From Eledone cirrhosa (Eukaryota): 64,000 bases of DNA. Below, in pieces: positions 10,481 to 63,019 of the stretch; the first letter of the stretch is position 1; the number at the start of each line of letters is the position of its first letter. The translations under genes and the position numbers were made by a program. The notes below the pieces were generated by a model that ran no database searches, was not told the DNA's origin, and saw nothing but the letters and a program-made list of their open reading frames with translations. The stretch is from contig OZ024741.1 of assembly GCA_964016885.1 (NCBI GenBank), positions 124,806,001 through 124,870,000 of the forward strand. The letters are read 5' to 3'.

Positions 10481-11247
10481 TAAAATATAGAGAAAAATAC
10501 TGCAGGTAGCACATGGATAACATGTAATAAAATAAGTCCCTCATCAGTGATTTGCTGAAGATCATAGATATTTCATTGCATTAAAAATCATATATCTCAC
10601 GTCGGTGCAATAATAACCAAAATAAGTTATTAGGACAATTAAAACGCGTAAAGCGAGTGAGACAGGAGAACAACAAAAAGTATAGCTAACCGTAGAGGAC
10701 AGAAACAAGCTTCAAAAATTATTCTGTTTAGCGTAAGCTAGGTGAATATATGAGCGCTTAGAGAATAGATCCTACACGAACGAAGACTATGAGCAGAGAG
10801 AGAAAAATAGCGTTCGTGGTGTGCAGGATGAAATGAAGAGAAGAGAGAGAAAAACAGTGAGTGAGTGAAAGTGTGAGGAAGAGTTAACGGACATGACAGA
10901 GGGGGAGAAACAGAGAGAATGGGGGAACAGTAAGAGAGAGATAAAAAAACACAGAATCGCATTGGTAAATATATGTATTAAAATATAGAGAAAAATACTG
11001 CAGGTAGCACATGGATAACATGTAATAAAATAAGTCCCTCATCAGTGATTTGCCGAAGATCATAGATATTTCATTGCATTAAAAATCATATATCTCACGT
11101 CGGTGCAATAATAACCAAAATAAGTTATTAGGACAATTAAAACGCGTAAAGCGAGTGAGACAGGCGAACAACAAAAAGTATAGCTAACCGTAGAGGACAG
11201 AAACAAGCTTCAAAAATTATTCTGTTTAGCGTAAGCTAGGTGAATAT
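10479..11247. repeat. (TA)n-flanked partial tandem duplication (~270 bp repeat, ~498 bp period), pLTR-like
   Basis: 10479-10750 is repeated at 10977-11247 with very few mismatches. Both ends abut (TA)n. Confidence 0.8.
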
Positions 11248-11260
11248 ATATATATATATA

Positions 11261-11450
11261 GTGGTGGAACACTGGAAGGTAATAACCGTAGTGGCAGAGC
11301 ACTCAGTCCAAGGGACGAGTTAGATAGAAGTGGTTACATAACAGTTAGTTCACCATACCGAGAACAATTGTATCACCTTCGCGGATCCTGAAGATCCGCG
11401 AAGGTGAAACAATTGTTCTCGGTATGGTGAACTAACTGTTGCGTAACCAC

Positions 11451-11453
<3 letters not shown>
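11261..11453. mobile_element. (TA)n-flanked foldback pLTR cassette (family D) with hammerhead core at the apex
   Basis: Inverted arms meet at about 11387. The right arm starts CUGAAGA-UCCGCGAAGGU-GAAA-CAAUUG-UU|CUCGG. An intact copy is at 53321-53360. Confidence 0.8.
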
Positions 11454-11497
<44 letters not shown>

Positions 11498-17235: not shown

Positions 17236-17301
<66 letters not shown>

Positions 17302-17344
17302 AAATACAAATATTAATAAAATAGATGTTCTTTTGATCAATTGA

Positions 17345-17397
17345 ATTTTATTATACATATTTCGGAGGTACAACAATACGTCCTCATCAGACAAAAT
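17345..17397 (-). ncRNA. Minimal type I hammerhead ribozyme (family C)
   Basis: Inverted copy of 17498-17550 with the core intact. Confidence 0.8.
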
Positions 17398-17497
17398 ATA
17401 ATGATACATGACCTACCCTGAGATGTTAAATGGTTGAGATTTAATCAAGGTAAAATCTTAACCATTTAACATCTCATGGTATGTCATGTATCATTAT

Positions 17498-17550
17498 ATT
17501 TTGTCTGATGAGGACGTACTGTTGTACCTCCGAAATATGTATAATAAAAT
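17498..17550 (+). ncRNA. Minimal type I hammerhead ribozyme (family C)
   Basis: AUUUUGU-CUGAUGA-GGA c GUAC uguu GUAC c UCC-GAAA-UAUGUA-UA|AUAAAAU. Canonical core, 7 bp stem I and a minimal stem III. Confidence 0.85.
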
Positions 17551-17897
17551 TTAATTGATCAAAAGAACATCTATTTTATTAATATTTGTATTTTAATATT
17601 AATAACTCTGGAAAAAAAATTATTTTTCACTGTAGAGTGCTTCCAATCTACTGTAAAACTCATTCTTTGATATACTCATTGAATATTGTTTAACTCTTTA
17701 ATATATATATATGTATATATATATATATATGTATGTATGTATGTATCTATGTGTATGTATAATTCAAATTCAAAAAGTATATTCATATATAATATATACG
17801 TGTGTGTGTATGATTTAGATGTATATATGTATGTACATATGTTTACATATGTATATATGTGCATGTTTATAGAAATATATGCATATATACGTATATG

Positions 17898-18559: not shown

Positions 18560-18672
18560 AAATAAATTTTCTTAAAAGACTCCAGTTTCATTTTCACTTT
18601 CTTTTCCCTATACTTTCACCCGTGTATGACATCTGATTCATTTGGTTTTTTCTTTTTAATAAAACTTCATTT

Positions 18673-18709
<37 letters not shown>

Positions 18710-18755
18710 GATAATGGGGTTTAGAACCCTCAGATAAATGGAAAAAGATGAGTAT

Positions 18756-18826
18756 TGACGTACATGGGAGTCGAACCCACATCTTTTTTTATCCAGACCA
18801 CTGTATAATCATTACACCAGTACATC
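18756..18826 (-). tRNA. tRNA-like cloverleaf in repeat unit (anticodon stem eroded, loop CUGGAUA)
   Basis: Acceptor GAUGUAC/GUACGUC and T arm GUGGG-UUCGACU-CCCAU. Probably not a decoding tRNA. Confidence 0.45.
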
Positions 18827-19134
18827 ACCCATCTCCTTCCATTCAAATTAGAAGCTACATTCTTAGTGAGTATAAATGACAAGTAAGTATGTTTTGAAAC
18901 AGTGAGCAGGTTTGAAATTAGAAAATAGAATAGCTTTCACCGTATTTTTGACTAAAGAAATTTTAGTCTGATAATGGGGTTTAAAACCTTCAGATAAATG
19001 GAGAAAGATGAGTATTGACGTACATGGGAGTCGAACCCACATCTTTGGTTACCTTATCACTGTTTCAAAACATACTTACTTGTCATTTATACTCGCTAAG
19101 GATGTAGCTTCTAATTTGAATGAAGGAGATGGGT

Positions 19135-19205
19135 GATGTGTTGGTGTAATGGTAGCACAGTGGTCTGTATAACCAAAGATGTGGGTTCGACTCCCATGTA
19201 CGTCA
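19135..19205 (+). tRNA. tRNA-like 71 nt cloverleaf in repeat unit (loop CUGUAUA)
   Basis: GAUGUGU UG GUGU-AAUGGUA-GCAC A GUGGU-CUGUAUA-ACCAA AGAU GUGGG-UUCGACU-CCCAU GUACGUC A. Canonical arm spacing, A and B boxes, and a T5 run about 10 nt downstream. Confidence 0.6.
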
Positions 19206-19394
19206 ATACTCATCTTTTTCTATTTATCTGAGGGTTCTAAACCCCATTATCAGACTAAAATTTCTTTAGTCAAAAATACGGTGAAAGCTATTTTATTTTC
19301 TCATTTCAAACCTGCTCACTGTTTCAAAACATACTTACTTGTCATTTATACTCGCTAAGAATGTTGCTTATAATTTGAATGGAAGGAGGTGGGT

Positions 19395-19465
19395 GATGTA
19401 CTGGTGTAATGGTAGCACAGGTGTCTGGATAACCAAAGATGTGGGTTTGACTCCCATGTACGTCG
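19395..19465 (+). tRNA. tRNA-like cloverleaf in repeat unit (loop CUGGAUA, T-loop mutated)
   Basis: Second plus-strand copy, with acceptor and D stems intact. Confidence 0.45.
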
Positions 19466-19834
19466 ATACTCATCTTTTTTCCATTTATCTGAGGGTTCTA
19501 AACCCCATTATCAGACTAAAGTTTCTTTAGTAAAAAATACGGTGAAAGCTATTCTATTTTCTAATTTCAAACCTGCTCACTGTTTCAAAACATACTTACT
19601 TATCATTTATATATATATATATAGTAAAATAATGGAGTAAAGGACTCGCGTATAATCCTGTAATTTAATTAGCTCAAAGGAAAAAGTGTTCCTGGTCACT
19701 CAAAATACAATATAGAGAGGAAGAACACAGGAGAGTGTGTTTTCATTTACAGGATTTATAACCACCGGCGTGAAGAGAATATAAGCTGTGAAAGGTATAG
19801 GAAATGTATTTCCTACACCTCTGAGCAGCCTAAT

Positions 19835-20681
19835 TTTCATTTATCGTTTTCGGTACGCCCGGCCGACTAACTCATTCGATATGCAAATTAGGCTGTTCCG
19901 CCGTTAATATGCGTAAGGAAAGTATATACTTTCAAACGTTCAATCGACTGACAGGAAGGTATACGGTGCTAATAACAGCTAGTAAGCTAGAAACTAGTTC
20001 ATGTTCCTTTGTCATTGTTGAACAAAAGAACAACGATGGTTGCCGAACACTGTTCGGCTTAATTCGGGCTGTTTGTTTACAACCAAGCCGAACATTATAA
20101 TAAATATTCGGTAAACCCATACGTACATATATGTATGTGTACATCTATATATATACATACTTCTGTACGTCTGTATACATATATGTATGTACGTATACAT
20201 ATTTATATTTAAGTATCAGCCGTACTAAAAGTGAGAAATGAAATTTCATTTTTTCCATTTATCCTTTTCGGTACGCCCGGCCGACTAACTCACCCGATAT
20301 GCAAATTAGGCTGCTCAGCCGTTAATATCCATAAAGAAAGTATATACTTTCAAACGTTCAATCGACTGAAAGGAAGGTATACGGTGTTGATGACAGCTAG
20401 TAAGCTAGAAACTAGTTCATCGTTCCTTTGTCAGTGTTGAACAAAAGGGCAACGATGGTTGCCGAATACTGTACGGCTTAATTGGGGCTGTTTGTTTACA
20501 AACAAAACGAGCATTATAATAAATGTTCGGTAAACCCATACGTACATATATGTATGTGTGCATGTATGTATGTATATACATACTTCTGTACGTATGTACA
20601 CATATATGTGTGTACGTATACATACGTATATTTAAGTATCAGCCGTACTAAGAGTGTGAAATGAAATTTCATTTTTTCCAT
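19835..20681 (+). mobile_element. Tandem dimer of a ~418 bp hammerhead-bearing unit (family E)
   Basis: TTTTCGGTACGCCCGGCCGACTAAC at about 19847 and 20265. One HHR motif per unit (19963-20004 mutated, 20381-20423). The same family is at 38271-38980. Confidence 0.8.
20381..20423 (+). ncRNA. Minimal type I hammerhead ribozyme (family E, C3U in this copy)
   Basis: ACGGUG-UUGAUGA-cAGCU agua AGCUa-GAAA-CUAG-UU|CAUCGU. Confidence 0.6.
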
Positions 20682-21411
20682 CTATATATATACTTTTGCA
20701 TCATTCGTCTTGCACATCACATTGGTCAACCTGATGTTATAGTAGAAGTCACTTGGTTATATTTTACAGAGAGTGACAAACACATAATTGTCTGATATAT
20801 TGTATGATATAATTTCAAAAATTATGCTAATTATAGACGGAATACGACAGATATAAATAATGGCGTCATTATTCTAAGTCTTGTGTGCTGAATACAATGT
20901 TTGGTAATTACATGGCTAAAATCTATACCTGTATTTTCTATTGTAAAATTGCTCAAGGTTTATTAAACTTTTCTTTAGTGTTTTTATTCTGCTTCATATT
21001 TCCTGACTTGTCACTTTCTCAGTAAATACATCATTATTTGATAAATTATGGCTTTTTCATTTACTATATACATATTATAAATTGCTTTTCCACTGTAGAC
21101 TTTGGATGAAAGCTTTATTATAGAAGCATGTGTATAAACATCTTACAAGTTAGCTGTGGCCCTCAGCAACTCAAAATACATTTATATGATTTAAGCGGCA
21201 GTAAGTTGATTTGTGTGCTGCAGTGTCATATTGCATGGGATATCTATTAATCATTGTCAGTTTAGACTATACTCATATAACATTGCAAAGACCAAAATAT
21301 ATTTACAATCATTTTAGTTTAGAGATTTTAACTGACACTTTCATGGGAATAATTCTCTCTGAACGTAAATGAAAATAAATGGTCGAATGACAGTGCTATC
21401 ATAGATTCAAG

Positions 21412-31330: not shown

Positions 31331-31607
31331 GGAGTTGGGCTGTTCTTTCATGTTTACTTAGGTTACTATTTTCTAATGTATATTGTTAGCAAGTCATAAT
31401 CTAATTATAGTTTTCAGATAACAATAAGGAAGCCATACCAATTGGTAAATAGCTTCCGCTCGTATACTACCAATTTAAATTATACATAAACACGGATAAT
31501 TTACCTTTAAATTTGATAATTCTAATTTTTCCTCTTTATTTAGTTTCAATATGATTCTTGCATCGTAAAATATTTTTCTTTGGTATAAAAAATATATATA
31601 TATATAG

Positions 31608-31659
<52 letters not shown>

Positions 31660-31750
31660 CGAAGGAAATGTGGTAAGGAACCAGGTGGACCATAACGCAC
31701 CAAAGTACTCAATACTTGAGGTAGTAGAGTGGGTAATAGGAACCAGTAAG

Positions 31751-31844
31751 ACCCCGACAGCTGAGCTCAAGCCGTTTCGACGGCTAATTCTGGACTAAAT
31801 GAAAATTTATCCTGGTATTTAAATAGCCTATCTTCTCAAGGGGT
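31751..31844 (-). ncRNA. Type I hammerhead ribozyme, U3-A8 core (family A)
   Basis: Inverted copy of 34827-34920. Confidence 0.7.
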
Positions 31845-33027
31845 AATTCCATATATGGTCAAAGTGATTGTCAAAAATCAGTAGTAATTCTGTGGTTGCA
31901 AATTAGTAGGGGAGATGGTGGCTAAACCTGCCAGTAGGAGAAAGAGGGGAGGTGGTGGAGTAGACCCAATCAAGCGTTGGTAGTGCCAGCTACAGCTGGG
32001 CATGAGGTCAAAGAAGATACAGGGGAGGGGGAGGGGGAGGAAGTCGGAACGGTAGGTAGAACAATGGGGGTTAGAAATATATAGGAAAGAAAAAATACTG
32101 AAGTGAAGAAAAGCAAATAAGTGTAAAGAAAAAAGTAAAGTAAATTAAATTCTACGACCTAGGTCTCAGGCTATTGTTAGGCTAGAATAAAATAAAGAAA
32201 GGAAGAAAGAAGTAAAGAAATAAATAAATAAAGAAATAACGAAATAAGTAAAAGAACTAGGTGGGACGGTATAGGCAAGGACCCTTTTAAGAGGTATAAG
32301 TACGTAAATGATACGGTGACGGGTCAACAAAAGGGGCCAAAATACTAAAGAGACTACCACGAAATAAACAATAAAGGTTTCCATCCCGGGCCAGCAACGA
32401 CCCAGTGCAGCAAAGTGAACTTGTACGAGATAATAATTCTGAGTCCCGAGAAAAATATATACTAATGCTAACTCTAAAAGATCTAAAACAAGCTACATGA
32501 AAGTTCGTACGAAATAAAGGTAGAATACGGAGAAATAAATTCAGAATCCACCCCGCCCAGAAGAAAAGCGAAGCAAGAAATACTGAAACGAAAAAATAAG
32601 GCATAAGTGCCACTAAGAAATATAGAGGGCACAGAGAATAGTGGGAGCGGTCGGAAAAAGGGGGCAAGTATCCGGGGTCTAAGCCAACTGCTATAAAGGG
32701 CGGAGTCCGCCAAATCTATCATAGACTAGGGGAGGGGTGGTGGGGGTACTACGGCTACATGGGGCCAAAGAGCAGCCTCGGGTGGGCGAGAAAAGACGCC
32801 GACAAAGGAGAAGAGCTGGGGTAGAAGGACAAAGGAGAGAGGGGGGAAGGAAATAAAGGAAGCGATAAAAGAATACAAAGACGATCTTACGTCTTCCTTG
32901 GCAAGCAGGGGTTACCCATTGCAAAATCGGCAAGTGGGGTGTTATAGCCCTAGTCTAACCCCCCCCCCCCGGGTCATTATGGGGTTTGAGGGCGAGGTAA
33001 GTCCTACGCAATCTATGTTTACATGCA

Positions 33028-33728
33028 ATGTAACATGGTTCAATCCTCCCCACAACGCAGAGGCGACTACTCCCATCGGGAAACTATTCTTTAGGCTCAT
33101 TGAAAAACACTTCCCATTACAACACCGCTACCACAACATAATTAACAAAAATACCATCAAACTCTCTTACAGCACTACACCAAACTTCGCACAAAACATC
33201 GTCTCCTCTAACAACAAAAAACTCAACCCCGATGGCAGAAATAACCTAAATAGCAGTGGAGAACCGACCAGGAGGTGTAACTGCCCGGATAGATCTATTT
33301 GCCCACTCGACAATAGATGCAGAGACCGTAATGTGATCTACCAGTGCAACGTGAGGACGGATACCTCCAACACAGCCTATATAGGACTTACCGCATGTGA
33401 CTTCAAGACCCGGCTATACCAACATAGACATACCTTCCGAAACCCCGCCCGGCGTCACGCCACTACACTTTCGGGCCACATATGGGACCTCAAGGACAAC
33501 AACATCACCTATGATCTCACTTGGAGATTACTGTCCAGAGCCAATTCTTACACGGGAGGACGCCGTCCGTGCAATTTATGCTCGGAGGAAACTTTACAAA
33601 TGCTGTTTTCGACGGACCAACTCCTAAACAAGAAAGATGAACTGGTTACTGCATGTAAACATAGATTGCGTAGGACTTACCTCGCCCTCAAACCCCATAA
33701 TGACCCGGGGGGTAGACTAGGGCTATAA
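33028..33728 (+). CDS. Penelope-like linker plus GIY-YIG endonuclease (5'-truncated, open frame)
   Basis: VTWFNPP, KHFP, CNCPDRSIC (CxCx5C), VIY...YIG, FKTRLYQH, LTWR, CNLC, SEE, LNKK and ACKH. The first ~43 codons of ORF 32898..33728 come from the inverted arm. Confidence 0.88.
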
Positions 33729-34826
33729 CACCCCACTTGCCGATTTTGCAATGGGTAAACCCTGCTTGCCAAGGAAGACGTAAGATCTTCTTTGTATTCT
33801 TTTATCGCTTCCTTTATTTCCTTCCCCCCTCTCTCCTTTGTCCTTCTACCCCAGCTCTTCTCCTTTGTCGGCGTCTTTTCTCGCCCACCCGAGGCTGCTC
33901 TTTGGCGCCATGTAGCCGTAGTACCCCCACCACCCCCTCCCCTAGTCTATGATAGATTTGGCGGACTCCGCCCTTTATAGCAGTTGGCTTAGACCCCGGA
34001 TACTTGCCCCCTTTTTCCGACCGCTCCCACTATTCTCTGTGCCCTCTATATTTCTTAGTGGCACTTATGCCTTATTTTTTCGTTTCAGTATTTCTTGCTT
34101 CGCTTTTCTTCTGGGCGGGGTGGATTCTGAATTTATTTCTCCGTATTCTACCTTTATTTCGTACGAACTTTCATGTAGCTTGTTTTAGATCTTTTAGAGT
34201 TAGCATTAGTATATATTTTTCTCAGGACTCAGAATTATTATCTCGTACAAGTTCACTTTGCTGCACTGGGTCGTTGCTGGCCCGGGATGGAAACCTTTAT
34301 TGTTTATTTCGTGGTAGTCTCTTTAGTATTTTGGCCCCTTTTGTTGACCCGTCACCGTATCATTTACGTACTTATACCTCTTAAAAGGGTCCTTGCCTAT
34401 ACCGTCCCACCTAGTTCTTTTACTTATTTCGTTATTTCTTTATTTATTTATTTCTTCACTTCTTTCTTCCTTTCTTTATTTTATTCTAGCCTAACAATAG
34501 CCTGAGACCTAGGTCGTAGAATTTAATTTACTTTACTTTTTTCTTTACACTTATTTGCTTTTCTTCACTTCAGTATTTTTTCTTTCCTATATATTTCTAA
34601 CCCCCATTGTTCTACCTACCGTTCCGACTTCCTCCCCCTCCCCCTCCCCTGAATCTTCTTTGACCTCATGCCCAGCTGTAGCTGGCACTACCAACGCTTG
34701 ATTGGGTCTACTCCACCCCCTCCCCTCTTTCTCCTACTGGCAGGTTTAGCCACCATCTCCCCTACTAATTTGCAACCACAGAATTACTACTGATTTTTGA
34801 CAATCACTTTGACCATATATGGAATT

Positions 34827-34920
34827 ACCCCTTGAGAAGATCGGCTATTTAAATACCAGGATAAATTTTCATTTAGTCCAGAATCAGCCGTCGAAACGGC
34901 TTGAGCTCAGCTGTCGGGGT
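34827..34920 (+). ncRNA. Type I hammerhead ribozyme, U3-A8 core, long stems II and III (family A)
   Basis: ACCCC-UUGAGAA-GA u CGGCU...AGCCG UC-GAAA-CGGC uugagcuca GCUG-UC|GGGGU. Predicted cleavage is after C34915. Confidence 0.78.
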
Positions 34921-34952
34921 CTTACTGGTTCCTATATATATATATATATATA

Positions 34953-37675
34953 TTGAAAAATGGAACGGGATACATATATAAGTATTACGGTAAAACTAAT
35001 CGGTGCGTCATTAATGAAATCAACGATGCTGGGTTTAAAATCACCTCTGATCTCAACATCCTGGACCAGACTGTACCTCTGGACCCTATTTCTCCCCACT
35101 TTACCCTGAAGGATCACAAATCTAATTTTCCGAACAACCTTTCTATTCGGCTTATTAACCCTACGAAGTCCGATTTAGGTAGACTTAAAAGGATTCTTGA
35201 TAGAATTATACCTGAAATTAGAAGTTTGGCCCCTCTTGCACTGTGGAACAACTCTTTCGCGGTGATTGATTGGTTCAACGGCATATGCATCAAGGAACAT
35301 TGCCGTTTTATCCAAACCGACATCAATAATTACTACTCCTCCATCACTTTACCACTTCTCCTTAGAGCTATCAATTTCGCAAAAACACTCACAGTGGTTA
35401 AGGATTTCGAAGTTGATGTCATCCTCAATGCCTGTAAGTCGGTGATTAATTTCGACGACTCTATTTGGATTAAAAAATCTAATAGTACCCCCATTCGACG
35501 TGAGTATGGGCGCCAGCGATTCTGCGGAGCTTACTGATCTTATCGGCCTTTTCCTTCTTTTCTCTATCAAGGACGAATTCCCCAACGTGGGCGGTGGTTT
35601 GTACCGTGATGATGGTATTTTGACCATGACTAAGTGCGGCCCACGTGGTTGCGACAGGTTCAGAAAAGAACTCACAACCTTCTTTAAAGGCTTCAACCTC
35701 TCTATATAGGTTGAGGCCAACCTCTCGGTCGTTAATTACCTCGACGTTACCCTCAAGTTATCGAATGGCTTGTATTACCCGTATAAAAAGCTGAATGATA
35801 CCCTTAATTACATAAGTAAGCATTCTAAACATCCTGCCAGCATAACTAAGAACCTGGTAAGAAACGTTTCTTTGAGGCTTTCCAGTCTATCTACAAACGA
35901 GGATATTTTCACCGACCATTCCACATATTACAATGAAGCTCTTGTTCGGAGTGGATTTGTCGACAGAGTACGAGAATAGACCTAGGAAAAATAGATCCCG
36001 ACGCATTATATGGTATAACCCACCATATAATATGGAGGTGGCCACACCATTAGCTAAGATCTTTCTATCCCTTATTACGAAGCATTTTCCCCCTACACAT
36101 AAATATAGTAAAATTTTTAATAGAAATGCTATTAAAATTTCTTACTCTACGACTCCTAACCTTGCACATAATATCACAGCTTCAAATTTAGCTAAACTAC
36201 CTAATCGTAGGAACACATGCAACCCTGTAGTTAGTACTAACTGTAATTGTAGGAATCGGGTTGACTGCCCCCTATCCGGGAAATGCCTCTCTAGTAACAT
36301 TGTCTACAAATGTAAGGTTGAAAGCCCCACGTCCCGTAGGGCCTACATAGGGTTAACCACCAATAGATTCAAGCAGCGTCTTTACATGCATACACATACT
36401 TTTCGTTACCCTATAAGAAGGAATATGACGTCACTTTCAGCTTATATCGGAGTATCAAAGACAACCACACCCAATATAAGTTATACTGGGAGGTCCTAGC
36501 TAGGGCTAGATCGTGTAACGGAAATAAAAGACTATGTGACCTCTGCGCCGATGAGGCGCTGGAAATACTCTACGCCACAGACCACATTTTAAACAAAAAA
36601 TCTGAGGTAATTTCGGCTTCTAAACATAAATTGCACAAAACTTTCCTGTATTACAGCCCCACATTATACCCTAACGGATAGTACGATCTATACGCGGATA
36701 TTTTACGTCTTGATGTGGTAGCTAAGTATATATTATGTTTATATCATTACTTATTTGCATAGGTAAGTATATATTACCTGTATGTTTTGTGCAGGTATGT
36801 ATACTTTCTCGTACGTATTAGTGATTGTATATGTTATGGCGTATATTTTATATATTCTGGTACATATGCTTTTGGTTATGTGTATACGTGAGTTTTGTGT
36901 CTGTGTGAGTATGCGGGTTCGTACGTATGTAGGGTGTGTGTATACATGTACTTCGTGTTTTGGTTGACGTACGTCTCCGAACATATGTGTATTTACATGT
37001 AGGTATGTGTGCGCGCTTGTTATATACGTATTTATTTATTTATATACGTTTATTTAATTATTTGTATACATGCACACACACACAAACACACACATATTTA
37101 TATGTGCGCGCAGTTGTATACCTATGGCCAGTGTTTCCGTGTATGCTTGTGTATGTACGTATATGGATGTATTTATTTAATTTCAATTACCTCTCTATTT
37201 TATTTACTTTATTCTTAACTCTGAAGTCGAGAATCATTCGGTTTCCTAGTTAGAATTTTAGTCTACGACTTCAGTTATACCATTTACGTGGTTTTGTCTT
37301 TGCGTGCAATTGTTCTCCACGTTCCACATATGATGTATTATCTTCGTTTTTTCCGTTCTTTGCCAGAGAACGTCTCTATGAACCACCAAAGAGAATATTA
37401 GTCTACGACTTCTTTCATACCATAAACGTGGTTTTGTCTTTGCGTATAATTATTTTTCACCGCTCCAAATAATGACGTATTATATTCGTTTTTTCCCGTT
37501 ATTTGCCAGGGAACGTTTCCACGAACCAAAGTATCGTCTTCCTGTCTTCCTCCGGTTGCAACGTTTTTTGAAATATTCACTTCCGCGTTCACAGATTGAT
37601 TTTGTTAGTTTCAGAAGATCCCGTTAAGGGTCAAAGCAGCGATTCTTTGCTTAAACTTTAATTTGTTATTTTAAT
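34953..37675 (+). mobile_element. Nearly complete degenerate Penelope-like element: RT + GIY-YIG (34953-~36683) and probable 3' region ending in the family F terminus
   Basis: TLKDHKSNF..IRLINPTKSDLG, FIQTDINNYYSSI, SMGASDSAELTDLIG, LYRDDG, NYLDVTL, RRIIWYNPPY, CNCRNRVDC, IVY..YIG, CDLC and LNKKSE. Several frameshifts or stops. Bounded by (TA)n. Confidence 0.88.
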
Positions 37676-37695
37676 ATATATATATATATATATAT

Positions 37696-38220
37696 AGGAA
37701 CAAGTAAGACCCCGACGGCTGAGCTCAAGCCGTTTCGACGGCTAATTCTGGACTGAATGAAAATTTATTCTGGTATTTAAATAGCCGAGCTTATCATGGG
37801 TTAATTCCATATATGGTTCAAAGAGATAATCAACAGGATTGGTCACATCACAAGTTAATAGTAAATCTGTGATGGCAAATTGATGGGGGAAGGGGTAGCT
37901 AAACCTGCCGGTAGGAGAAAAGGGGAGACGGCAGGTTTAGCTACCCCTTCCCCCACCAATTTGCCATCACAGATTTACTACTAACTTGTGATGTAACCAA
38001 TCCTGGTGATTATCTCTTTGACCATATATGGAATTACCCCTTGATAAGCTCGGCTATTTAAATACCAGAATAAATTTTCATTCAGTCCAGAATTAGCCGT
38101 CGAAACGGCTTGAGCTCAGCCGTCGGGGTCATACTTGTTCCTATTACCCACTCTACTACCCTAAGTATTCAGTACTTTGGTGCGTTATGGTCCACCTGGT
38201 TCCTTACCACTTTTCCTTCG

Positions 38221-38223
<3 letters not shown>
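37696..38223. mobile_element. (TA)n-flanked family A foldback with two U3-A8-type hammerheads (37709-37801 minus, 38036-38129 plus)
   Basis: Inverted arms meet near 37920. The short end is on the left and the tail-bearing end on the right. Confidence 0.88.
38036..38129 (+). ncRNA. Type I hammerhead ribozyme, U3-A8 core (family A)
   Basis: ACCCC-UUGAUAA-G cu CGGCUA...UAGCCG u C-GAAA-CGGC..GCCG-UC|GGGGU. It differs from the 34827 core only at the free N7 position. Confidence 0.78.
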
Positions 38224-38270
<47 letters not shown>

Positions 38271-38274
<4 letters not shown>

Positions 38275-38980
38275 GGAAAAAATGAAACGAAATTTCATTT
38301 CCCACTCTTAGTACGGCTGTTACTTAAATATAAGTATGTTAACGTACATACATATATGTATACAGACGTACAGTAGTATGTATATATACACACATACACA
38401 GATATATATATGTACTTATGGCTTCACCGAACATTTATTATAATGCTCGGTGTGTTTGTAAACAAACATCCCGTATTAAGCCATAGTGTCCAGCAAACAT
38501 CGTTGCTCGTTTGTATACATATATGTTGTACGTCGTATGCATATATGTATGTACGTGTACATACTTATATTTAAGTAACAGCCGTACTAAGAGTGGGAAA
38601 TGAAATTTCGTTTCATTTTTTCCGTTTATCGTTTTCGGGCACCCGGCCGATTAACCCACTCGATATGCAAATTGGGCTACTCAGCCGTTAATATGCATAA
38701 GGTAAGTATATACGTTCAACAATCTGGCAGGAAGGTATACGTTGCTGACGATAGCTAATAAGCTTGAAACTAGTACAGCGTTCCTTTGTCAGTGTTGAAC
38801 AAACGAGCAACGATGTTTGCTGGACACTATGGCTTAATACGGGATGTTTGTTTACAAACACACCGAGCATTATAATAAATGTTCGGTGAACCCATACTTA
38901 CATATGTATGTGTGCATATGTGTATATATACATATTACTGTACGTCTGTATACATATATGTATGTACGTTAACATACTTA
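38271..38980. mobile_element. (TA)n-flanked foldback of family E
   Basis: 38271-38512 is inverted relative to 38560-38625 and 38800-38980. Homologous to 19835-20681. Confidence 0.8.
38739..38781 (+). ncRNA. Minimal type I hammerhead ribozyme (family E, canonical core)
   Basis: ACGUUG-CUGACGA-uAGCU aaua AGCUu-GAAA-CUAG-UA|CAGCGU. Confidence 0.8.
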
Positions 38981-39074
38981 TATATATATATATATATTTA
39001 TATATATTTACCGTTAGACAGTTTATTATATGTTACTTATATTAGCTTAAAATATATATTATACTAATAACTAT

Positions 39075-39490
39075 AAGGAAATGTGGTAAGGAACCAGGTG
39101 GACCATAACGCACCAAAGTACTCAATACTTAGGGTAGTAGAATGGGTAATAGGAACGAGTAGGACCCCGACGGCTGAGCTCAAGCCGTTTCGACGGCTAA
39201 TTCTGGACTAAATGAAAATGTTTATCCTGGTATTAGAATAGCCGAGCTTCTCAAAGGGTAATTCCATATATGGTAAAAGTGATTGTCACAAGGATTGGTC
39301 AAAGGTTTGTTGTTGAGACATAATAATTCTATCATGGCAATTTGTGGAGGGAGGGGTAGCTGAACCTGCCAGTAGGAGAAAGAGGGAGATGGGGTGCAGG
39401 AGACCCAGTCATGCGTTGATAGTGCCGACTACAGCTGGGCATGAGGTCAAAGAAGATACTAGGGAGGGTGAGGGGAGGAAGTCTGAATAG
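39075..39490 (-). mobile_element. Family A pLTR fragment with hammerhead (39164-39259)
   Basis: Matches 31661-32050 and 53551-53977. The minus-strand core is UUGAGAA. Confidence 0.85.
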
Positions 39491-42824: not shown

Positions 42825-45010
42825 ATAACATAAAAACCGAAATTGAACTCCTTAAATTGAGAGCCGAAGCAAATGAAGATAGGATCAAATCAATCGACGA
42901 TGAGATTAATCAAGCAATTATCAATAAAACCAAAGACACCACCCTAGAAAATATTTTTAAAATATGGTTAGAGGACTGTAATAAGGAAGAATTAAAATCC
43001 CTTCAACGTTGGGAAAGAAACGAAAGCTGGTTCTCTAACTATGAAACACTTTTCCAAAAAGAACACACATCCAAGAACCCCTTCATTAAAACCATAACAA
43101 GAAAACTTAATCAACACTCAAACAACACACAACAACCAAGAACAACAAAAAAAACAATACCCCCACCCCCCCGCATACCAACAAAAGAAGGCAGCACCTC
43201 GCCCCTACCTCCTACATCTTCCACACAACTACCACACGGATTTCCAAGCAACAAATATAGTAATAGAGAATCAGCTACAAGATAGACACTACAACTTCTC
43301 TCCCACCAGGAGAAACCATAGAATCCCCCACACTTACAACCCCCTAACATCCCCACACAACAAACCCACAACCATCTTTACTTCCAACATAGAACCCAAA
43401 CTACACAACTACCGCACATGTCACACAGGGCTTCACAACCACACACCAGCTATAAGGAAACCTTAATCTACCCTCCTCACTAACCACATCCTATTACAAC
43501 AACACCAGCAGGGGACAATACAACCACATGAGACACCCTAACCACTACAGCCACCATAGCTACACACCATATAACAGCAACAGCAGGACTCAATATAACC
43601 ACACAAGACAACCCTACTACAACTACCACCAAGTCTACACACCCTACAACAACAGCAGTGCTCAGTGCAACCATACGATACAACCCAACTTCAACAACCT
43701 CCACAACTTCTCACCCTATTACCACGTCCATCAAATCTACACACCCTACATCATCAGCAGGGCTCAATACAACCACACGATAAAACCTAAACTCAACAAC
43801 CACCAACAGCAGAGGCCAATACAACTATAAGAGACATCCAAACTTCAACAGCCATCACAACTTCCGTAATCATTTTTTAGACACAGCACACAGACACAGG
43901 ATAATAAGATAACACAAAACACACAGGAGACACAAAATGTAATAAAAATTGTTAATTTAACCTCTAAAGAATTAACAACAGACCAAATCAACATACTCTC
44001 CAAAGGTCTAAAATTTACACCAACTCCCTAACAACCAAACTACCCCGAAATGAAGGAGGATATTGCAGAATTCTGTAGAAAACTAAGACTCAGCGAACAA
44101 CTATACGACAAATACAATGAGGATGACTCTATAGCCAGAAATAGAAGCAACTATACCCCACCAAAAGGAAAGAACAAATTCCTCGATCAATTCTGCGAAC
44201 ACATTACTAATTACCCATACCACCACCTACACAGACATAAACAAAAACCAAACCTAAGCAAAAAAGAATGGAATGGTCTTAACAGTCTAAAAAACGACAA
44301 AACCCTAACAATCAAAGAGACAGATAAAGGGAGTGCAGTAGTCCTTATGGAGACAGATTACTACACGACTCTAGTACTCTCAACTCTAGAAAACCAAACA
44401 TATTATGAAAAGGCCCAACACTACACACAGCAGAAAATAATGAGAAACCTAAAATCCCTAACAACCCTTTACAAAGAAGGCCTTACAGACAAGGAATACA
44501 ACTACATCACCAATTTCAAAAGCAGAACCAGCCTCTTCTACGGTATCCCAAAGACACACAAAAGCGAAGTAATAGGTAGGGCCTGCAAGCAAGCCACAGA
44601 CGTTTACGTCAATATAGTCCCTCCTGATGACCTTAAATTAAGACCCATAATAGCAGGCACCACATGTGAAACCCACCGCCTAAGCAACTTCCTAGATATT
44701 CTGCTTAAACTTTTCCTAAAACACATAAAAAGCTTCATGAGGGACGGCCTTGACATGCTCAACCACCTCACAACAACACTCAATAATGAACATACCCTAC
44801 TAGTAACCTTTGATGTCATCAATTTATATTGCAATATCACACAAAATAGGTATAGAGGCAATACAATTCTGGCTTGAAAATTTACCTAGTGAACTCCTAC
44901 AACGCATCCCTAAAGAATTTGTGTTGGAGGGACTCAAATTCATCTTGGAAAACAATTTCTTCGAATTCAATGCCAAATACTACAGACAGAAATCTGGGAC
45001 TGCTATAGCT
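42825..45010 (+). pseudogene. Penelope-like element of a second lineage (Neptune/Naiad-like RT N-terminal half), truncated
   Basis: LSKGLKFTPTP, IKETDKGSAVV, FYGIPKTHK, LRPIIAG..THRLSNFLDILLK, LVTFDVINLYCNI and FILENNFFEFN..YYRQKSGTA. Clade assignment is tentative. Confidence 0.85.
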
Positions 45011-45247: not shown

Positions 45248-48200
45248 TCAGCAAATAAGTATCTGTACAGTATTAGATACAAAGTTTTGGAATGTTTTAC
45301 ATATTTTTACTGTTCCATTAATGGATTGTACTTGTAATTTCATAACTAGTTGTGTTCTTTCTGTTCCTGTGAAGACCAGCTTCTCAAGATTTGTATTGAG
45401 GCAGTTACTAACATATCCCAGTGCCCCAATAATCACAGGCATAAATCTGAAGGTATAATCAGGGTGGAGTATCGGCAGATTTCTCATCAGTTCTGCATAA
45501 ATATTCTCCTTTTCGTTAATCTTTGATATTATATTGGCATATGCTGGGCAGCTAACTTCCACTACTGTGTATGCCTTCTTTTCCCTGTCCCATATAATAT
45601 CTGCTCTGTTATACCTGCATTTTATTGGGGTTTTTACTGGAACATTCCACCAGTACTCTTTCATATTATATATATGTATGTCTTCCACGTTGCTGTAGCT
45701 TTTATTGTGTTTATTATTGGGGCTATCTTTTCTACGGATTGCATTGTACAGTGTTTTGGCACCTACATCAAGCCTCATAGGTAGATAGTATCGCGATGAC
45801 ATTTTTGGACAACTGCTGATGACATGGGTGATATCTTCGATGTTAATTCTTCAGAGTCTGCACTTGTTATCACATCTATGTGTTTTGCCTGCACTCCTAT
45901 CTCTTTTCTGAATCAGGTATTTCGTGTTGATTTCCTGTTCTTGGATTGCAAAAGCGTATCCTTCAAAGTGGGAGCCAATATAGCGGTTGTTGGTCCAAGA
46001 TAGACTACTTTCTTTACCTATATTATTCTCACTCTGGAGCTTCCTGGCAACATATCCATGCATGATTTTTTGCTGATAAGCATGCAGTTTTTCATCCATG
46101 GATTCACTGCGATTATGCTGAGCGACTTCCCTGGGTGTGAGTTTTTGATTATCACACAGGGAATACCTCTCGAGGACTGCCTTCCCAACTCTCATGATCT
46201 TATCTGTTTCATGTAGATAGACTTGCTCGAGAGACGGGCTCGAGAGACGGGCTCGAGAGACGGGCTCCGACAACATCTACTAAACTCTTTGAGTTTAGTA
46301 GATGTTGTCGGAGGCATATGATGCGACATTCAAATGCTGTCTGGACTGATGTTAGGCCTCTGCCTCCCTGCTTACGTTTCAAGTAAAGCCGGTCTATGTC
46401 ACTGTTGATGTGGAAGTTCCCGGAGTTGTTTAGTATGTTTCGTCTATGGTCTAATTGAGTATTCCAAAAGTTGGTGTTAGGACAGGCACAGCAACACACA
46501 TTGTGAGCCACTGTTTTGTGTTGCGCAGAGATTTCCGATGACCATATGATTCTTAATCGGGTGTAGTATTCCCTGGTTACGCGTTCCTTATTACAGATAC
46601 CATTATAGGATATGTTCTCATCTATCCCCAGGTAGCTGTAGCAGTCCTCATCAGATATCGGTGAAACAGTTAGGCCATTGATACAAATGTTGCTAGATTG
46701 GGTTGTTGTTTTTCCCCGCTTTACAGTCATATATGAGCATTTATCTTGGCCAAACTCCATTCCTATATCCTTTGAGAACGTTGTAACCAGGTCAAGATTT
46801 TTCTTCATCCCATCCATGTTCTTGGCATAGAGTTTCAGGTCATCCACAAAGAAATTATGGGTTAGGTCCGTATATCTATCCTCCTCTGAGTCAATGGTGT
46901 ATCCTTCACATTTCTTGAGCACAAAGGACAAGGGGTTTAATGACAGGATGAATAATATCACAGAGAGACTGTCTCCCTGAAATATATCCCTGTGATATGT
47001 TATTTTATCAGTGAAAATAGAGTCCTCCTTCTCTGTCTTTAACTTTAGGAAAATAGCCCAAGAAGAAGACAGCCTCTCTATGGCTCTGATTATAATGTCT
47101 GGGACATTAGCTAGTCGGAGGGCCTCTATCCTCCATGATTGGGGAACAGAATTTAAAGCTTTCCTGTAGTCCAACCACACTGTAGCCATATTCCTCCTAA
47201 GTTGTCGCATCTCCGACATCGCATTTTTGTAGATTAGGAGTTGTTCAGCACATCCCCAAACCCCTTTCTTTCCAGGTGCTTGTTCATTTGTGATGATCTT
47301 ATTATTTTCACAGTGATCTTGGAGGAATATGTTCAGGCAGGCTGTATACATCTTATACATCAGGTTCTGGCATGGAATGGGTCGGTGGTTTTTGCCAGGA
47401 CGGTGTCTTTGTTCTTGGGGACCAATAATGTTTGTGCTAATGTCAACTATTCTGGTATAAGTGTATCTCCCTTAAGAACTTGGTAGAGGTCGGTAAGATA
47501 TATCCGATAGAATATCAGTTTTTGGTATCAGTAGCCGACAATCACGTCTCTTCCTGGTGTTTTCTTATCTTGGAGTTATATCGTATGTGTTTGTTGTAGT
47601 GTAGGAGCAATAGTTCTTTTGGATTTATTTTAGCCACACTGCATCTTGGTTGAAATTCTTCTTTTCACCCCATATTTTTCTCCAAAAGGAATCTATGTCT
47701 TTTTGGGATGGGGCCTCAATGACACTTATTATTTTGCCCTTCATATCTCTATAGACTGATGTTTGGTTTCGTCTGAATCTTTTATTCAGCACTTTTCTTT
47801 CATCTATCATCTTCAGGTATCGGTGTTTTTCGCTAACGGCTTTCAATTCTTGTTTGAGTGTGATCAGCTTATATTGAAGAGTTCTGGTTCTACTGTTACC
47901 AAACATCGTCTCTATTTCATTTTTCACTCTTTTTGTGTCTGTTTACATGTAAGGAGCATTGTCACATATCCTATGTTTTTTCGTAGGTCAGAAATATCTT
48001 TTTCTATTTTAGTTATATATGATGGTATTTTTGGTGATGTTTTGTTCTTGTTAATATCTCTGCTATCACCAAGATAATACTTCACTGTCATTGCTAAGGC
48101 ATATAAATAGGCGTTGATTTGCCAAAATGTTGGGGTTTTTATCCGTCGTAAATATTCATCCCCTATTTCGTCCATAACACGTAATATTTCATTATTTGTT

Positions 48201-48800: not shown

Positions 48801-49154
48801 AGAAATGCGATTTATAATTTCCGTTTCTTCTGTAGCTACAACTGATTAAATTTTGTTTACATTTCTCATTTGTCTTCGGTATTCAACTGATGTTGTTGTT
48901 GATGTTCTGTTCAGCAATGCTATTTCTATCAAATCCTTGTAAAATGAATTATGTATTTAGTCGGATCTCTACGAATTCGAATAGAAGGTGTCTTCCGTGG
49001 ATATAGTTAGAAGAACATCCAGTTATTCAACATGGCTGGTAGTTGTGGCATTACTCTCGGAGATAGTATGCATCTTAAATTTAATGAATAGTCTCCGACG
49101 TCAAAATATGCGACTGATCGCGTTGACTGACTATGTATGTATGTATGTATGTAT

Positions 49155-50052
49155 TCACGGCACAGGCATTGCTTTATATCTGGAAATCTCTCTGTACTTG
49201 TCGTCACATGGTACCATGGGCCCAGCACTATGTGTCAATAATTGTCCCAAGTGTAGTGTTTGTACCAGATTTTTCAAGTTGCTGGCTGGACTAAAAGGTC
49301 ACACTCGTTCAGCGCATCGGTAGGGTTCTCCTACATGGATATAAAGTAGTGGCCGTACTCGAAAACGAGTTGGCAACCACCCTGTATGTATGTATGTATG
49401 TATGTATGTATGTATGTATGTATGTATGTATGTATGTATGTATGTCAGGACACCAGTTGGTGCTACTGGTAACATGTATCCCAGTATAACCTGTCTCATA
49501 TTCGGGTCGTTGGCGACTAAACTGGCAACTCCACCAAGATTTCTTGGTGAGGAGGGTGACTTTGAACATCCAACAGGACTAAAATCAAAACCTGTCAAAT
49601 AGCAAAGGAGCTCTTAAGAGTCAATGGCCATCCAAAATCACCGGGAGAGATGACCCCTTAGCCTTTGTCAAGGCAGAATTCTAGGAGAAGGAAAACTCTG
49701 ATATAACACCTGCAACCCTGATGGTATCCAATGATGTTGACTTGTTCTTCTTTTTGGTAAATATCATCTTGGTTAAGAGAGTGGGACTGGATTTGTGCAG
49801 TGCCTTTGCTCACTATAAAAGCTTCACGGCACAGGCATTGCTTTATATCTGGAAATCTCTCTGCACTTGTCGTCACATGGTACCATGGGCCCAGCACTAT
49901 GTGTTAATAATTGTCACAAGTGTAGTGTTTGTACCAAAGTTTTCAAGTCGCTGGCTGGACTATAAAGTCGCACTCGTGCAGCGCATCGGTAGAGGTTCTC
50001 CTACATGGATATAAAGTAGTGGCCGTACTCGAAAACGAGTTGGCAGCCACCA
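49155..50052 (+). mobile_element. Truncated (49155-49380) plus full (49444-50052) non-autonomous RTE-type retroposon copies separated by (TATG)n
   Basis: High identity to 9834-10437. Followed by an older RTE remnant (DRFVYWGVL / SLDAEIGLRIGKA) at about 50060-50160. Confidence 0.75.
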
Positions 50053-51463
50053 TGTATGTTGCTGACAGATTTGTGTATTGGGGAGTACTCTGAGTGTGAC
50101 CTGCTCTCTAGATGCTGAAATTGGTCTGCGTATTGGCAAAGCAACTGAGTCATTTAGAAGGTTCGGCGACCGCTGTAGTGCAGGAACGCAGGTGAGTCAA
50201 CGGCCATTCAATAAGGATTTGTTTGTAGAGTGAGAAACTCCTAGTCTCTGTAGGAGAAAGTCAGTCTGATATGTAACCTGCGACTTCGTTTTCAGCCAAT
50301 GATGTAGACAAGCTCTTCTTTTGGGGGCAAATGCATCGATGTTCGGAGAGTGGGATTGGCTCTGAGCAAATCCTTTCCGCACTTATAACAGCTTCAAGCA
50401 CAGGTAACGTTTTGTATGTGACATGTGACATTGTTTTCCAATGTATGTTATTGCTGGCCATAAGCAAGTTCCTAGCAGGACTAAAACGTCACATTCGTGC
50501 TCATGCTTAAGTATCAACCGATGGCATTACTCGAAATCAAGTTTTGGCAAATATTACTATTGCAAATAAAGCACAAGTTCAAATGTTCGTTGGAAGTTCA
50601 TATCATTCTGCCGCCCAGAAAAAGATTTTGCCTTTAAATTACTCGAGATTCACTACAATGGATACGCTTAGAATAGAGGCTATTTTGTTCGAGAGTCCCT
50701 ACGGGCTCGAGTCTCAAAGAAGGAGCTCTGCTGGACTGTTCAAATTATGTCTTTGCTTATTACAGGTTCTTATCTCATCTTCGTTTAATTAAGTTGGAGG
50801 ACTCATCCTTTCCTTTTTAGAATACCTTTCTATTAAATTAACTAAACTAAAGAATAAATTTAAAAATATGTCGGTGTGAGTTCGTATCATGTCAAAAATG
50901 TAGTTTTCCCTTTTCGTACATGTGTATACATTGATAGAGACATTGCGAATCGCATGCACAAACACACACACACTTACACACATAATTATATGAAGAGAAA
51001 TACCTCTTGGATGGCGGTATGTTTGATAGTCTTCAATATAACTGAATATTTGATTTATCTCTGCAACCAGGTTTTTTGTTCTGAGCACGTGGAATCCCTA
51101 GAGATAGGGTTTTCAGTGCAAATGCATTAATCTGTTGTACGATACGCGTGCGTGTTGCTAAGGTCGTTTATTAATATCGGAGAACGTTTAAGTTCATTTA
51201 TTTCGTCCATTTTGTTCATTGCCTCGTTATCATTGAATGCTGCTTATGTTGTTGTTGTTGTTGTTGTTGTGCATTCCTTATACTGAGGAATATTAACAAG
51301 AAACACTGTTATCTGTTGTTGCTGGATATATCGATGATATTGACTGCATTCAACCCAACGAAATATCCGCTCAATAAAATGTAAACGATATTTGCTTCAA
51401 GTGATCTTTTTATATCTTAAAGTTGAACCGATGCAAAATATTTATGATGATCAAGAGAATGTT

Positions 51464-53320: not shown

Positions 53321-53360
53321 CCGAGCTGAAGATCCGCGAAGGTGAAACAATTGTTCTCGG
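53321..53360 (+). ncRNA. Minimal type I hammerhead ribozyme (family D)
   Basis: CCGAG-CUGAAGA-uCC gcgaa GGu-GAAA-CAAUUG-UU|CUCGG. Perfect 5 bp stem I and palindromic stem III ACAAUUGU. Confidence 0.8.
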
Positions 53361-53472
53361 TATGGTGAACTAACTGTTGTGTAACCACTTCTACCTAACT
53401 CGTCCCTTGGACTGAGTGCTCTACCACTACGGATATTACTTTCCAGTGTTCCACCACTATATATATATATAA

Positions 53473-53527
<55 letters not shown>

Positions 53528-53550
53528 ATTATATATATATATATATATAT

Positions 53551-55200
53551 AACGAAGGAAATGTGGTAAGGAACCAGATGAACTGTAACGCACCAAAGTA
53601 CTCAATACTTAGGGTAGTAGAGTGGGTAATAGGAACGAGTAGGACCCCGACGGCTGAGCTCAAGCCGTTTCGACGGCTAATTCTGCACTAAATGAAAATT
53701 TTCATCCTGGTATATAAATAGCCGAGCTTCTCAGGGGGTAATTCAATATATGGTAAAAGTGATTGTCACAAGGATTGGTCAAAAGTTTGTTGTTGAGACA
53801 CATAATTCTATCATGGCAATTTGTGGAAGGAAGGGGTAGTTGAACCTGCCAGTAGAAGAAAGAGGGAGAGGGAGTGGAGGAAACCCAGTCGTGCGTTGAT
53901 AGTGCCAACTACAGCAGAATCCTAAGGATAAGAGGTCAATAGAAGTATACTAGGGAGGGGGTGGGGAGGAAGTCGAAACAATAAGTAAATCAATATGAGT
54001 AAATATATAGAAGAATAATAAGAATGTTAAAAAAATCTTTAAAAACAAACAATTTCTGTTTACTATTCCCTTACCACAATCATCAATTCTCTCACTGGGA
54101 CTGCTAAACTATAGAATAGTTTACTAGGTGAGACGGAATTGTAGTGAGAGAATTTTATGAGTTAGTAGTAGTCAACCAAGTCTATCTTACAGTGACAGGT
54201 CAATAAGTAGGGGGCAAAAATACTAAAGAAACTACTACGAAATAATAATTCAGAGTCCCGAAACTAATACGTAATAATAATTCAGAATCCCGAAAATCAA
54301 TACTAATACTATATATAAGGGTGCCGCTACGAAACAAAAATTCTAGTACAAACTATATAAATGTTCGTACGATATATATGAAAAATTTGATACGGAAAAT
54401 TAATTCAGAATCCCCCCCACCCCAAAAAATAAATAAATAAACAAATGAATAAATACTGATATACGATAAACTAAAGCAGAGATACCACTAAGAATTGTAG
54501 AAAGCACGGAAATGGGGCAGCCATCGGACAAGAAAGCAAGTATCTGGGGTCTATCACATCTGCTATAAAAAGCGGAATCGGCCGACACCGCTTTTTATTT
54601 CGTAGTAGTTTCTTTAGTATTTTTTCCCCCTACTTATTGACCTGTCACTGTAAGATAGACTTGGTTGACTACTACTAACTCATAAAATTCTCTCACTACA
54701 ATTCCATCCCACCTAGTAAACCTTTCTATAGTTTAGGAGTACCAGTGAGAGACTTGATGATTGTGGTAAGGGAATAGTAATCAGAAATTTTTTTTTATAC
54801 TTTTAACAATCTTATTATTCTTCTATATATTTACTCCGTATTGATTTACTTATTGTTTCGACTTCCTCCCCCTCCCCCTCCCTAGTATACTTGCTTGACC
54901 TCCTGCCCTTAGGAACCTGCTGTAGTTGGCACTATCAACGCACGACTGGGTTTCCTCCACTCCCTCTCCCTCTTTCTTCTACTGGCAGGTTCAGCTACCC
55001 CTTCCTTCCACAAATTGCCATGATAGAATTATGTGTCTCAACAACAAACTTTTGACCAATCCTTGTGACAATCACTTGTACCATATATGGAATTACTCCT
55101 TGAGAAGCTCGGCTATTCATATACCAGGATAAAAATGTTCATTTAGTCCAGAATCACCCGTCGAAACGGCTTGAGCTGAGCCGTCGGGGTCCTACTCGTT

Positions 55201-55204
<4 letters not shown>
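53551..55204. mobile_element. 1.65 kb non-coding family A foldback in (TA)n with hammerheads at 53644-53739 (-) and 55095-55190 (+)
   Basis: 53631-54245 is inverted relative to 54596-55204. The terminal ~350 bp and internal patches are homologous to the 31658-34934 arms. Confidence 0.88.
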
Positions 55205-56397
<1,193 letters not shown>

Positions 56398-62632: not shown

Positions 62633-62655
62633 GTGAGAGAGAGAAAGAGAGAGAG

Positions 62656-63012: not shown

Positions 63013-63019
<7 letters not shown>
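62656..63019. mobile_element. Family C foldback with hammerheads at 62801-62853 (-) and 62920-62972 (+)
   Basis: Same sequence as 17300-17701 in the opposite orientation with a different inversion point. Both cores are canonical (CUGAUGA/GAAA). Confidence 0.88.

Follow-up and report, generated by a model that had tools for sequence, protein, structure and literature searches.

A tRNA-bearing, protein-less 260-bp repeat family of Eledone cirrhosa with Penelope-like insertions and 5' ends that may record tRNA methylation

How does a repeat spread that encodes no protein and carries a tRNA cloverleaf where related elements carry a hammerhead ribozyme? This question is raised by an insertion at positions 18705 to 19610 of a 64,000-nt stretch of the Eledone cirrhosa genome, termed here the window. 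A preliminary description had proposed a non-autonomous element in the style of Penelope-like elements (PLEs) that bears a tRNA fold and no hammerhead. Such an element is supported by the present analysis, and its architecture argues for mobilisation by a PLE protein. About even chances are given to the full reading, in which a Pol III-driven, tRNA-derived and protein-less retroelement of 260 bp is mobilised by a PLE and its RNA is methylated like a tRNA.

The locus is a single insertion between two (TA)n tracts. It comprises inverted arms with a unit period of 260-261 bp and three 71-nt cloverleaves. Positions in the unit are counted from t1, the first cloverleaf base (window 19135 and 19395); t0 is the preceding base and t-5 corresponds to position -6. 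tRNA position 9 is t9, and tRNA position 58 is t56. The parts are as follows:

18677..18705, no strand: left (TA)n target tract (sequence)
18704..19051, minus strand: left arm, which starts at t36, spans a complete unit and stops at t123 of the following one, an atypical 3' end (96% identical to the subfamily A consensus)
18756..18826, minus strand: cloverleaf copy with a decayed anticodon arm (Rfam tRNA, 29.9 bits)
19016..19051, minus strand: 5'-truncated cloverleaf half (t36-71) at the arm junction (sequence and arm mapping)
19051..19611, plus strand: right arm, from about t176-182 via two cloverleaves to the long end at t216 (arm mapping; 96% identical to the family consensus)
19117..19134, plus strand: 5' strand of the long stem that extends the acceptor stem, with A at 19129 (-6) as putative Pol III start (fold z = -2.8; 5'-end cliff)
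19135..19205, plus strand: 71-nt cloverleaf with G9 at 19143 and A58 at 19190 (Rfam tRNA, 50.4 bits; ARAGORN; pairing)
19142..19152, plus strand: box A-like promoter element, the same in subfamilies A, B and C save one extra A in B (subfamily consensuses)
19184..19194, plus strand: box B-like element/T-loop, with T for A58 in subfamily C (subfamily consensuses)
19208..19226, plus strand: 3' side of the stem extension; its T5 run (19215-19219) may be a Pol III terminator (sequence, fold)
19395..19465, plus strand: second tandem cloverleaf (Rfam tRNA, 37.2 bits)
19536..19569, plus strand: short-3'-end zone of the family, the putative first start zone of reverse transcription, unused at this locus (family ends)
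19595..19611, plus strand: long-3'-end zone, the putative second start zone; the stretch separating both zones is the tail (family ends, arm pairs)
19608..19623, no strand: right (TA)n target tract (sequence)

The labels box A-like and box B-like follow the established box consensus. An AT-rich block of 12 nt (window 19102-19113 and equivalents), which precedes the cloverleaf by about 25-35 nt, is the same in A, B and C and may be an upstream promoter element. The main outlines drawn earlier, namely (TA)n flanks, tandem and inverted units of ~260 bp, outward arms (left minus, right plus) and a 71-nt cloverleaf in the units, were recovered, the last by Rfam tRNA matches and an ARAGORN call. Three details proved to be peculiar to this copy or had to be corrected. 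The short end CAGACTA|TA is shared by only 1 of 176 subfamily A ends that abut TA or CA. The end that is ~90 nt longer has no counterpart in the family, where short ends lie at t141-174, long ends at t200-217 and the tail measures ~45 nt. Because of this position of the short ends, the cloverleaf ends 70-100 nt before the usual short end, not ~50 nt.

In the 3.0 Gb host genome, exact probes matched 1,048 times (T-arm), 3,401 and 3,476 times (3' part) and 4,196 times (another probe), versus 0 matches of the control patterns compared with the 1,048 and 3,401. The genome-wide abundance of the unit is not due to chance. Its thousands of copies fall into three subfamilies: A (260 bp, including the locus), B (271 bp) and C (282 bp; 158 matches of a specific probe). 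Identity to the own consensus is 92% in C versus 95-96% in A and B, and C is the older subfamily. Contigs of three further organisms (791, 7 and 11 contigs) match the unit as well. The A/B samples stem almost wholly from one contig (C1). The two arms of one insertion are not independent, which is corrected solely in the count of one arm per locus. Four loci with long arrays (L070, L366, L421, L422) were omitted from the end-position analysis, the BLAST-best loci L001-030 and the D-arm-selected loci L257-286 from the cliff counts, and the T-arm-selected loci L031-080 from the mutation spectrum. Two of the long arrays are possible source loci: L421 (3808-9891) contains ~23 head-to-tail units and continues past the fetched stretch, and L422 (4128-6912) contains ~11. 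In L068 (1118-1353) and L036 (1625-1861), the cloverleaf appears inverted between the arms of the extended stem, which suggests template switching there.

The insertions are built like those of PLEs. Adjacent segments point outward in 174 of 179 cases, and an inverted 5'-truncated copy adjoins at the 5' end. Among the 147 arm pairs with both ends in the main zones, 137 combine one long with one short 3' end (p = 1e-29); 27 additional pairs have an end outside these zones. The tail (~45 nt in A/B, ~60 nt in C) is present at one end only. Both arms belong to the same subfamily in 133 of 134 pairs, and partner arms share ~4 times (A and B) or ~2.5 times (C) more variants than random pairs; for private variants of subfamily A, the values are 1.64 versus 0.39 per 100 nt. 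TA is found within 15 nt on at least one side of 297 and on both sides of 194 of 318 insertions. Non-simple flank repeats occur at 11 of the 318, in a screen that counted only repeats of at least 8 nt. Partial tandem copies (pseudo-LTRs) are seen at the locus and at many others. In the available text of PMC8557442, the same layout of tandem copies, inverted partner and (TA)n targets is described for PLEs, including the hammerhead-less Naiads. An active PLE begins copying at two places within its RNA, which delimit the tail, and extends both target strands; hammerhead cleavage is dispensable in vitro (PMC11167929, accessible part). The arm layout seen here matches the former source, and the two end zones with both strands extended match the latter. 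The TA insertion and the two fixed end zones expected earlier were seen in the sampled copies, which are not ordinary SINEs with target site duplications (TSDs).

A partner PLE was searched for at 210 loci. PLE fragments lie near the unit at 32 of them, and none is attached to the 5' end of an arm. The linkage to a PLE ORF envisaged at the outset was therefore not found. Nor do 66 free 5' ends share a common upstream flank. Neither tblastn nor low-stringency blastn brought up a related PLE 3' end, whether in the 1.69 Mb of sequence fetched or among 20 Neptune-like 3' regions; the best likeness among the few PLE families sampled was a weak 20-nt match (E 0.08), mostly TA, to the long end of subfamily C. 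Since no ORF is joined to the unit and no related PLE end was detected, mobilisation in trans is inferred, the enzyme likely being a Penelope-like reverse transcriptase (RT)/GIY-YIG protein.

The window harbours further elements. An abundant PLE at 44032-44877 (5,791 candidates; also L434 and L456-L475) has a CxxC finger before its GIY-YIG domain, ends in (TA)n and is presumably Neptune-like. Its scanned 3' regions contain no canonical hammerhead pattern, and its last bases weakly resemble the long end of subfamily C (E 0.08). Pfam named only one of 8 window ORFs, a non-LTR reverse transcriptase fragment at 46209-47471 on the minus strand (RVT_1, E 4e-17). More tandem or inverted repeat families are located at 11241-11459, 19834-20685, 31592-34953, 37694-39483, 49154-50059 and 53326-55225, some with hammerhead-like motifs or PLE-like ORF fragments.

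The absence of a complete hammerhead stated in the preliminary description holds. In an Rfam E-value scan of 18650-19660, tRNA alone exceeded the cut-off, a scan at Rfam gathering thresholds yielded none, and a minimal pattern run on both strands of the three subfamily consensuses gave one stemless match, in A only. A ribozyme as source of the T-loop ends described below was rejected on the same searches. A separate family with a hammerhead (window 17296-17700 and 62655-63021, and L234; 3,095 probe matches) makes up the terminal repeat of a PLE; the ORF upstream of it is presumably of the GIY-YIG type. It has a tail of ~100 nt and inserts like the tRNA unit. Since 28 of 30 arms of this family run past their own predicted cut site, the suggestion that the tRNA fold stands in place of self-cleavage is doubtful.

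The 5' ends of the copies are not evenly distributed. A stop in the T-loop, which the preliminary description had overlooked, is the strongest signal among them. They were sampled by 3' probes, and a T-loop stop was defined as an end at t55-64 among passes reaching t64. Such stops account for 15 of 24 passes in A, 25 of 36 in B and 5 of 60 in C (A/B versus C, p = 2e-11), and for 33 of 48 versus 4 of 53 when one arm per locus is counted. Counted by eye, read-through copies with an A/B trailer number 38 among the first 100 matches listed and those with a C trailer 81 among 100 matches listed, 12 of the 81 with an A-type loop. T-stem and CATG are the same in A, B and C; loop bases 58-59 alone differ, and C lacks A58. 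The CATG palindrome or the T-stem alone can be dismissed as cause of the stop, both being unchanged in C, which has no pile-up. Fold-back palindromes are found at only 17 of 46 A/B stops. The main pile-up is at t61-63, on AT or CATG microhomology. Among the first 100 of 157 truncated arms, counted by eye, starts inside the loop are mostly at t58 and fewer at t55-57; two arms, one of them from a C copy, start at t54.

A second A/B cliff lies at about t-5: 36 of 117 passes stop at t-12 to t7 versus 5 of 81 in the following 20 nt, and upstream of +1, 19 of 100 start at t-10 to t-1 versus 1 of 81 at t-20 to t-11. In C, this -6 cliff is weak (3/32). The third cliff is found in C at t10, where 21 of 54 passes end at t10-21 versus 1 of 33 at t-2 to t9 and 8 of 127 A/B passes at t10-21. 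All three cliffs have a ~10-nt tail on the 3' side, as would be expected from trimming. Beyond -12, 81 of 117 A/B passes go on, and therefore most long templates began further upstream.

tRNA positions 58 and 9 are the usual sites of m1A and m1G. An end at a purine 6 nt upstream of a tRNA is what initiation by Pol III would give, and it does not suit cleavage by RNase P. Methylations on the Watson-Crick face block RTs, according to the accessible part of PMC8062790. The -6 purine cliff, the stops at the m1A58 and m1G9 sites and the RT-blocking nature of such marks together point to Pol III transcription and tRNA-like methylation. As the copies break off at usual tRNA methylation sites, the DNA likely records RNA marks.

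The spread of the unit would comprise four steps. Transcription by Pol III would start ~6 nt before the cloverleaf and occasionally read through T5, so that tandem sources yield RNA of more than one unit; this step is rated slightly better than an even bet. Very probably, the PLE protein then cuts both (TA)n strands, and both resulting ends serve as primers at two sites within the RNA. Host enzymes would treat the fold as a tRNA, and m1A58 probably stops most A/B cDNAs; that m1G9 stops many C cDNAs is proposed more tentatively. Finally, the two cDNAs would be cut back at their ends as far as a short microhomology, in many cases CATG at t61-64, and then joined. The promoter would be kept only in read-through copies.

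Several observations speak against parts of this scheme. With the T5/T6 run in their path, most Pol III transcripts should terminate before they get to the start zones, and C lacks the invariant box B adenine, yet it was amplified. C is older and may have used another RT. Since the main peak is at t61-63 rather than t57, the scheme has to include trimming, and some arms extend to t55. Misincorporation at A58 was not seen in read-through copies (2/72 for A and 1/16 for B, against a baseline of 2%), and a T-loop cut or a block by tertiary structure would leave the same pattern as a methylation stop.

A T-loop cut is part of the alternative that survives best, though it is considered unlikely. 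Here, too, a PLE mobilises the unit, but the fold would be a processing signal at which RNase P/Z or a T-loop nuclease cuts host read-through transcripts of tandem arrays. Linear or circular templates would arise as they do via retrozyme hammerheads, and the T-loop pile-up would be an RNA end, not an RT stop. The T5/T6 run behind the cloverleaf (T5 in A and B, T6 in C), the amplification of C despite its broken box B, the long arrays (~23 units in L421) and the many arms exceeding one unit fit this explanation, and a nuclease might need a canonical T-loop just as the pile-up does. The other two cliffs do not fit: a circle would yield no cliff at -6, and we know of no processing cut at tRNA position 10. 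Moreover, cuts by RNase P should give a cliff at +1 and cuts by RNase Z a peak at t72; the copies show neither, and 19 of 100 A/B passes start within 10 nt upstream of +1. Of the two roles originally suggested for the fold, that of a Pol III promoter gains from the cliff 6 nt before it, and that of an RNase P/Z substrate loses.

A block by tertiary structure is less probable still. In this case, the unit would be PLE-mobilised from Pol III or read-through RNA, and the folded elbow (U54-A58, G19-C56) would stall the RT with no need of methylation. The in-loop starts (first 100 of 157, by eye) can be read both ways, as the furthest truncated arms reach t55, beside C56, and the commonest start, t58, is just 3' of A58. 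The missing mismatch signature at A58 agrees with an elbow, which the loss of A58 in C would likewise undo, but the position-10 cliff of C is left unexplained, because the D-stem should already be unwound there.

Does the tRNA part contribute to the spread at all? It is very improbable that it is a mere passenger, i.e. a SINE head or a tRNA captured by a PLE-derived unit. Between A and B, 1 of 71 cloverleaf positions is substituted versus 28 of 187 in the remainder (p = 8e-4), and between A and C 9 of 71 versus 71 of 185 (p = 4e-5). Of the nine changes between A and C, four affect stems, where pairing is kept or restored each time; the others are located in the anticodon loop and the T-loop. 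The preferential conservation that had been looked for thus exists between subfamilies, 3- to 10-fold and with pairing kept. A passenger would explain that cloverleaf and rest decay alike within subfamilies (A, 0.025 in the cloverleaf against 0.032 elsewhere; C, 0.063 in both) and that the cloverleaf hinders copying, with about two thirds of A/B arms losing it; neutral decay of dead copies is, however, expected under either view. As far as can be judged from sequence comparison, the cloverleaf is under selection in source copies, and inserted copies decay about evenly. The last alternative, already largely refuted, is either an ordinary tRNA SINE moved by a LINE and inverted through twin priming, or a DNA element of the MITE or rolling-circle type, for which tRNA boxes, fixed 3' and variable 5' ends, the long hairpin around the cloverleaf and TA targets could be cited, but twin priming yields a single 3' end and here both arms have one (long plus short in 137/147 pairs), TSDs are not regular, few copies start at the tRNA, and the cliffs at tRNA modification positions indicate an RNA template.

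The identity of the cloverleaf was also followed. The consensus anticodon is GGA in A and B and GGC in C, and the Tyr(GTA) call of ARAGORN at the locus reflects a copy-specific mutation. A functional tRNA gene family was rejected, since the anticodon differs between subfamilies and copies decay at about background rate. A strict pattern for the parent tRNA had 0 matches in viral contigs. A looser one retrieved tRNAs of various isotypes, 45 from prokaryotes and 29 from phages; the best was 54/71 identical, with 27 positions fixed by the pattern. Among host genes, tRNA-Gln (6 loci, terminators T4 to T10) reached 43-47/71 and 16 scored Rfam matches 35-45/71. Host tRNA-Thr and tRNA-Gln gene clusters with T4 to T10 runs were encountered at L242, L244 and L550-L555. 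A separate repeat of ~1.75 kb (L243, L245-L253; ~1194-2930 in L247 on the tRNA-sense strand) has copies that are 95% alike, an internal inverted repeat of ~175 bp and a tRNA of 53-72 bits with mostly GGC as anticodon; no PLE protein match was found in it.

How does the unit compare with known systems? By analogy, it appears to work like a non-autonomous PLE or a retrozyme (PMC7229834, PMC4209133, bioRxiv 10.64898/2026.07.22.740005, each in its available part). The non-autonomous PLEs MRC1/Chlamys are likewise protein-less and head-to-tail with an inverted 5'-truncated partner and a tail at one end, and Naiad and Neptune share the (TA)n targets (PMC8557442, accessible sections). Compared with MRC1/Chlamys as described there, the unit has an added conserved tRNA-derived module, a tail of ~45-60 instead of 30-40 nt, and no 3' likeness to an autonomous PLE in the loci and 3' regions searched. 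Animal non-LTR retrozymes, proposed to be non-autonomous PLE derivatives, also consist of low-GC units of ~300 bp in monomers to long arrays (PMC7229834, bioRxiv 10.64898/2026.07.22.740005, available text); the units here are of low GC and 260-282 bp, in arrays of up to ~23, with a tRNA fold and no type I hammerhead. The -6 cliff suggests that templates are partly linear.

The TRIMp3 elements Cassandra, Helenus and Ajax follow the same promoter logic: they are non-autonomous, and their repeated unit contains a Pol III promoter that derives from a small RNA; transcription of Cassandra starts within the repeat (PMC10886601, accessible part). In that text, they have two LTRs, PBS/PPT, 5-bp TSDs and depend on LTR elements, whereas the tRNA unit has PLE-type ends and, in the screen for repeats of at least 8 nt, no regular TSD. 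In place of an LTR-internal-LTR layout, it has inverted arms that are truncated at the 5' end and stop at TA tracts. Like SINE2 elements, it is non-autonomous, numbers thousands of copies and has boxes A and B of tRNA origin, both intact in A/B; in C, box B is changed at A58. It differs from them in its permuted unit, paired outward arms and the whole cloverleaf kept and followed by a T run; its copies neither start at the tRNA head nor possess a LINE-type A-rich tail with TSD. MALAT1 mascRNA-type signals are also tRNA-like folds within longer RNAs, but the copies of the unit lack the cliff at +1 and the peak at t72.

Both LINEs (SINE2) and LTR elements (TRIMp3) are known to have non-autonomous counterparts derived from tRNAs. 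In the literature searched, which covers few subscription papers, neither a tRNA-derived PLE-mobilised element nor a genomic record of m1A58 in truncation points was found. The available text of 10.1101/596502 mentions short non-autonomous Penelope elements of butterflies without detail, and that of PMC13282606 reports 893 unclassified SINE families in one cephalopod. The family may already be in Repbase/Dfam as an unclassified SINE or Penelope. It is conceivable, though we lean against it, that the family is to the Penelope class what SINEs are to LINEs, and the first of its sort: an element of tRNA origin, transcribed by Pol III, that uses a telomerase-like PLE enzyme, with an RNA that is a true tRNA-methyltransferase substrate and thousands of germline insertions that record m1A58 and m1G9 as 5' cliffs.

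For the PLE reaction, which is poorly understood, the unit offers a natural template of 260 nt, with two start zones, extension of both target ends and joining by microhomology. As the family spreads without a hammerhead, it bears on the purpose of the hammerhead in PLEs. With an A58-dependent cliff and a natural control lacking A58, limitation of retrotransposition by tRNA modification becomes directly testable in vivo. If m1A58 and m1G9 are indeed recorded as 5' cliffs, tRNA methylation would thus be a brake on transposition, from which subfamily C would have escaped at A58 by an altered T-loop.
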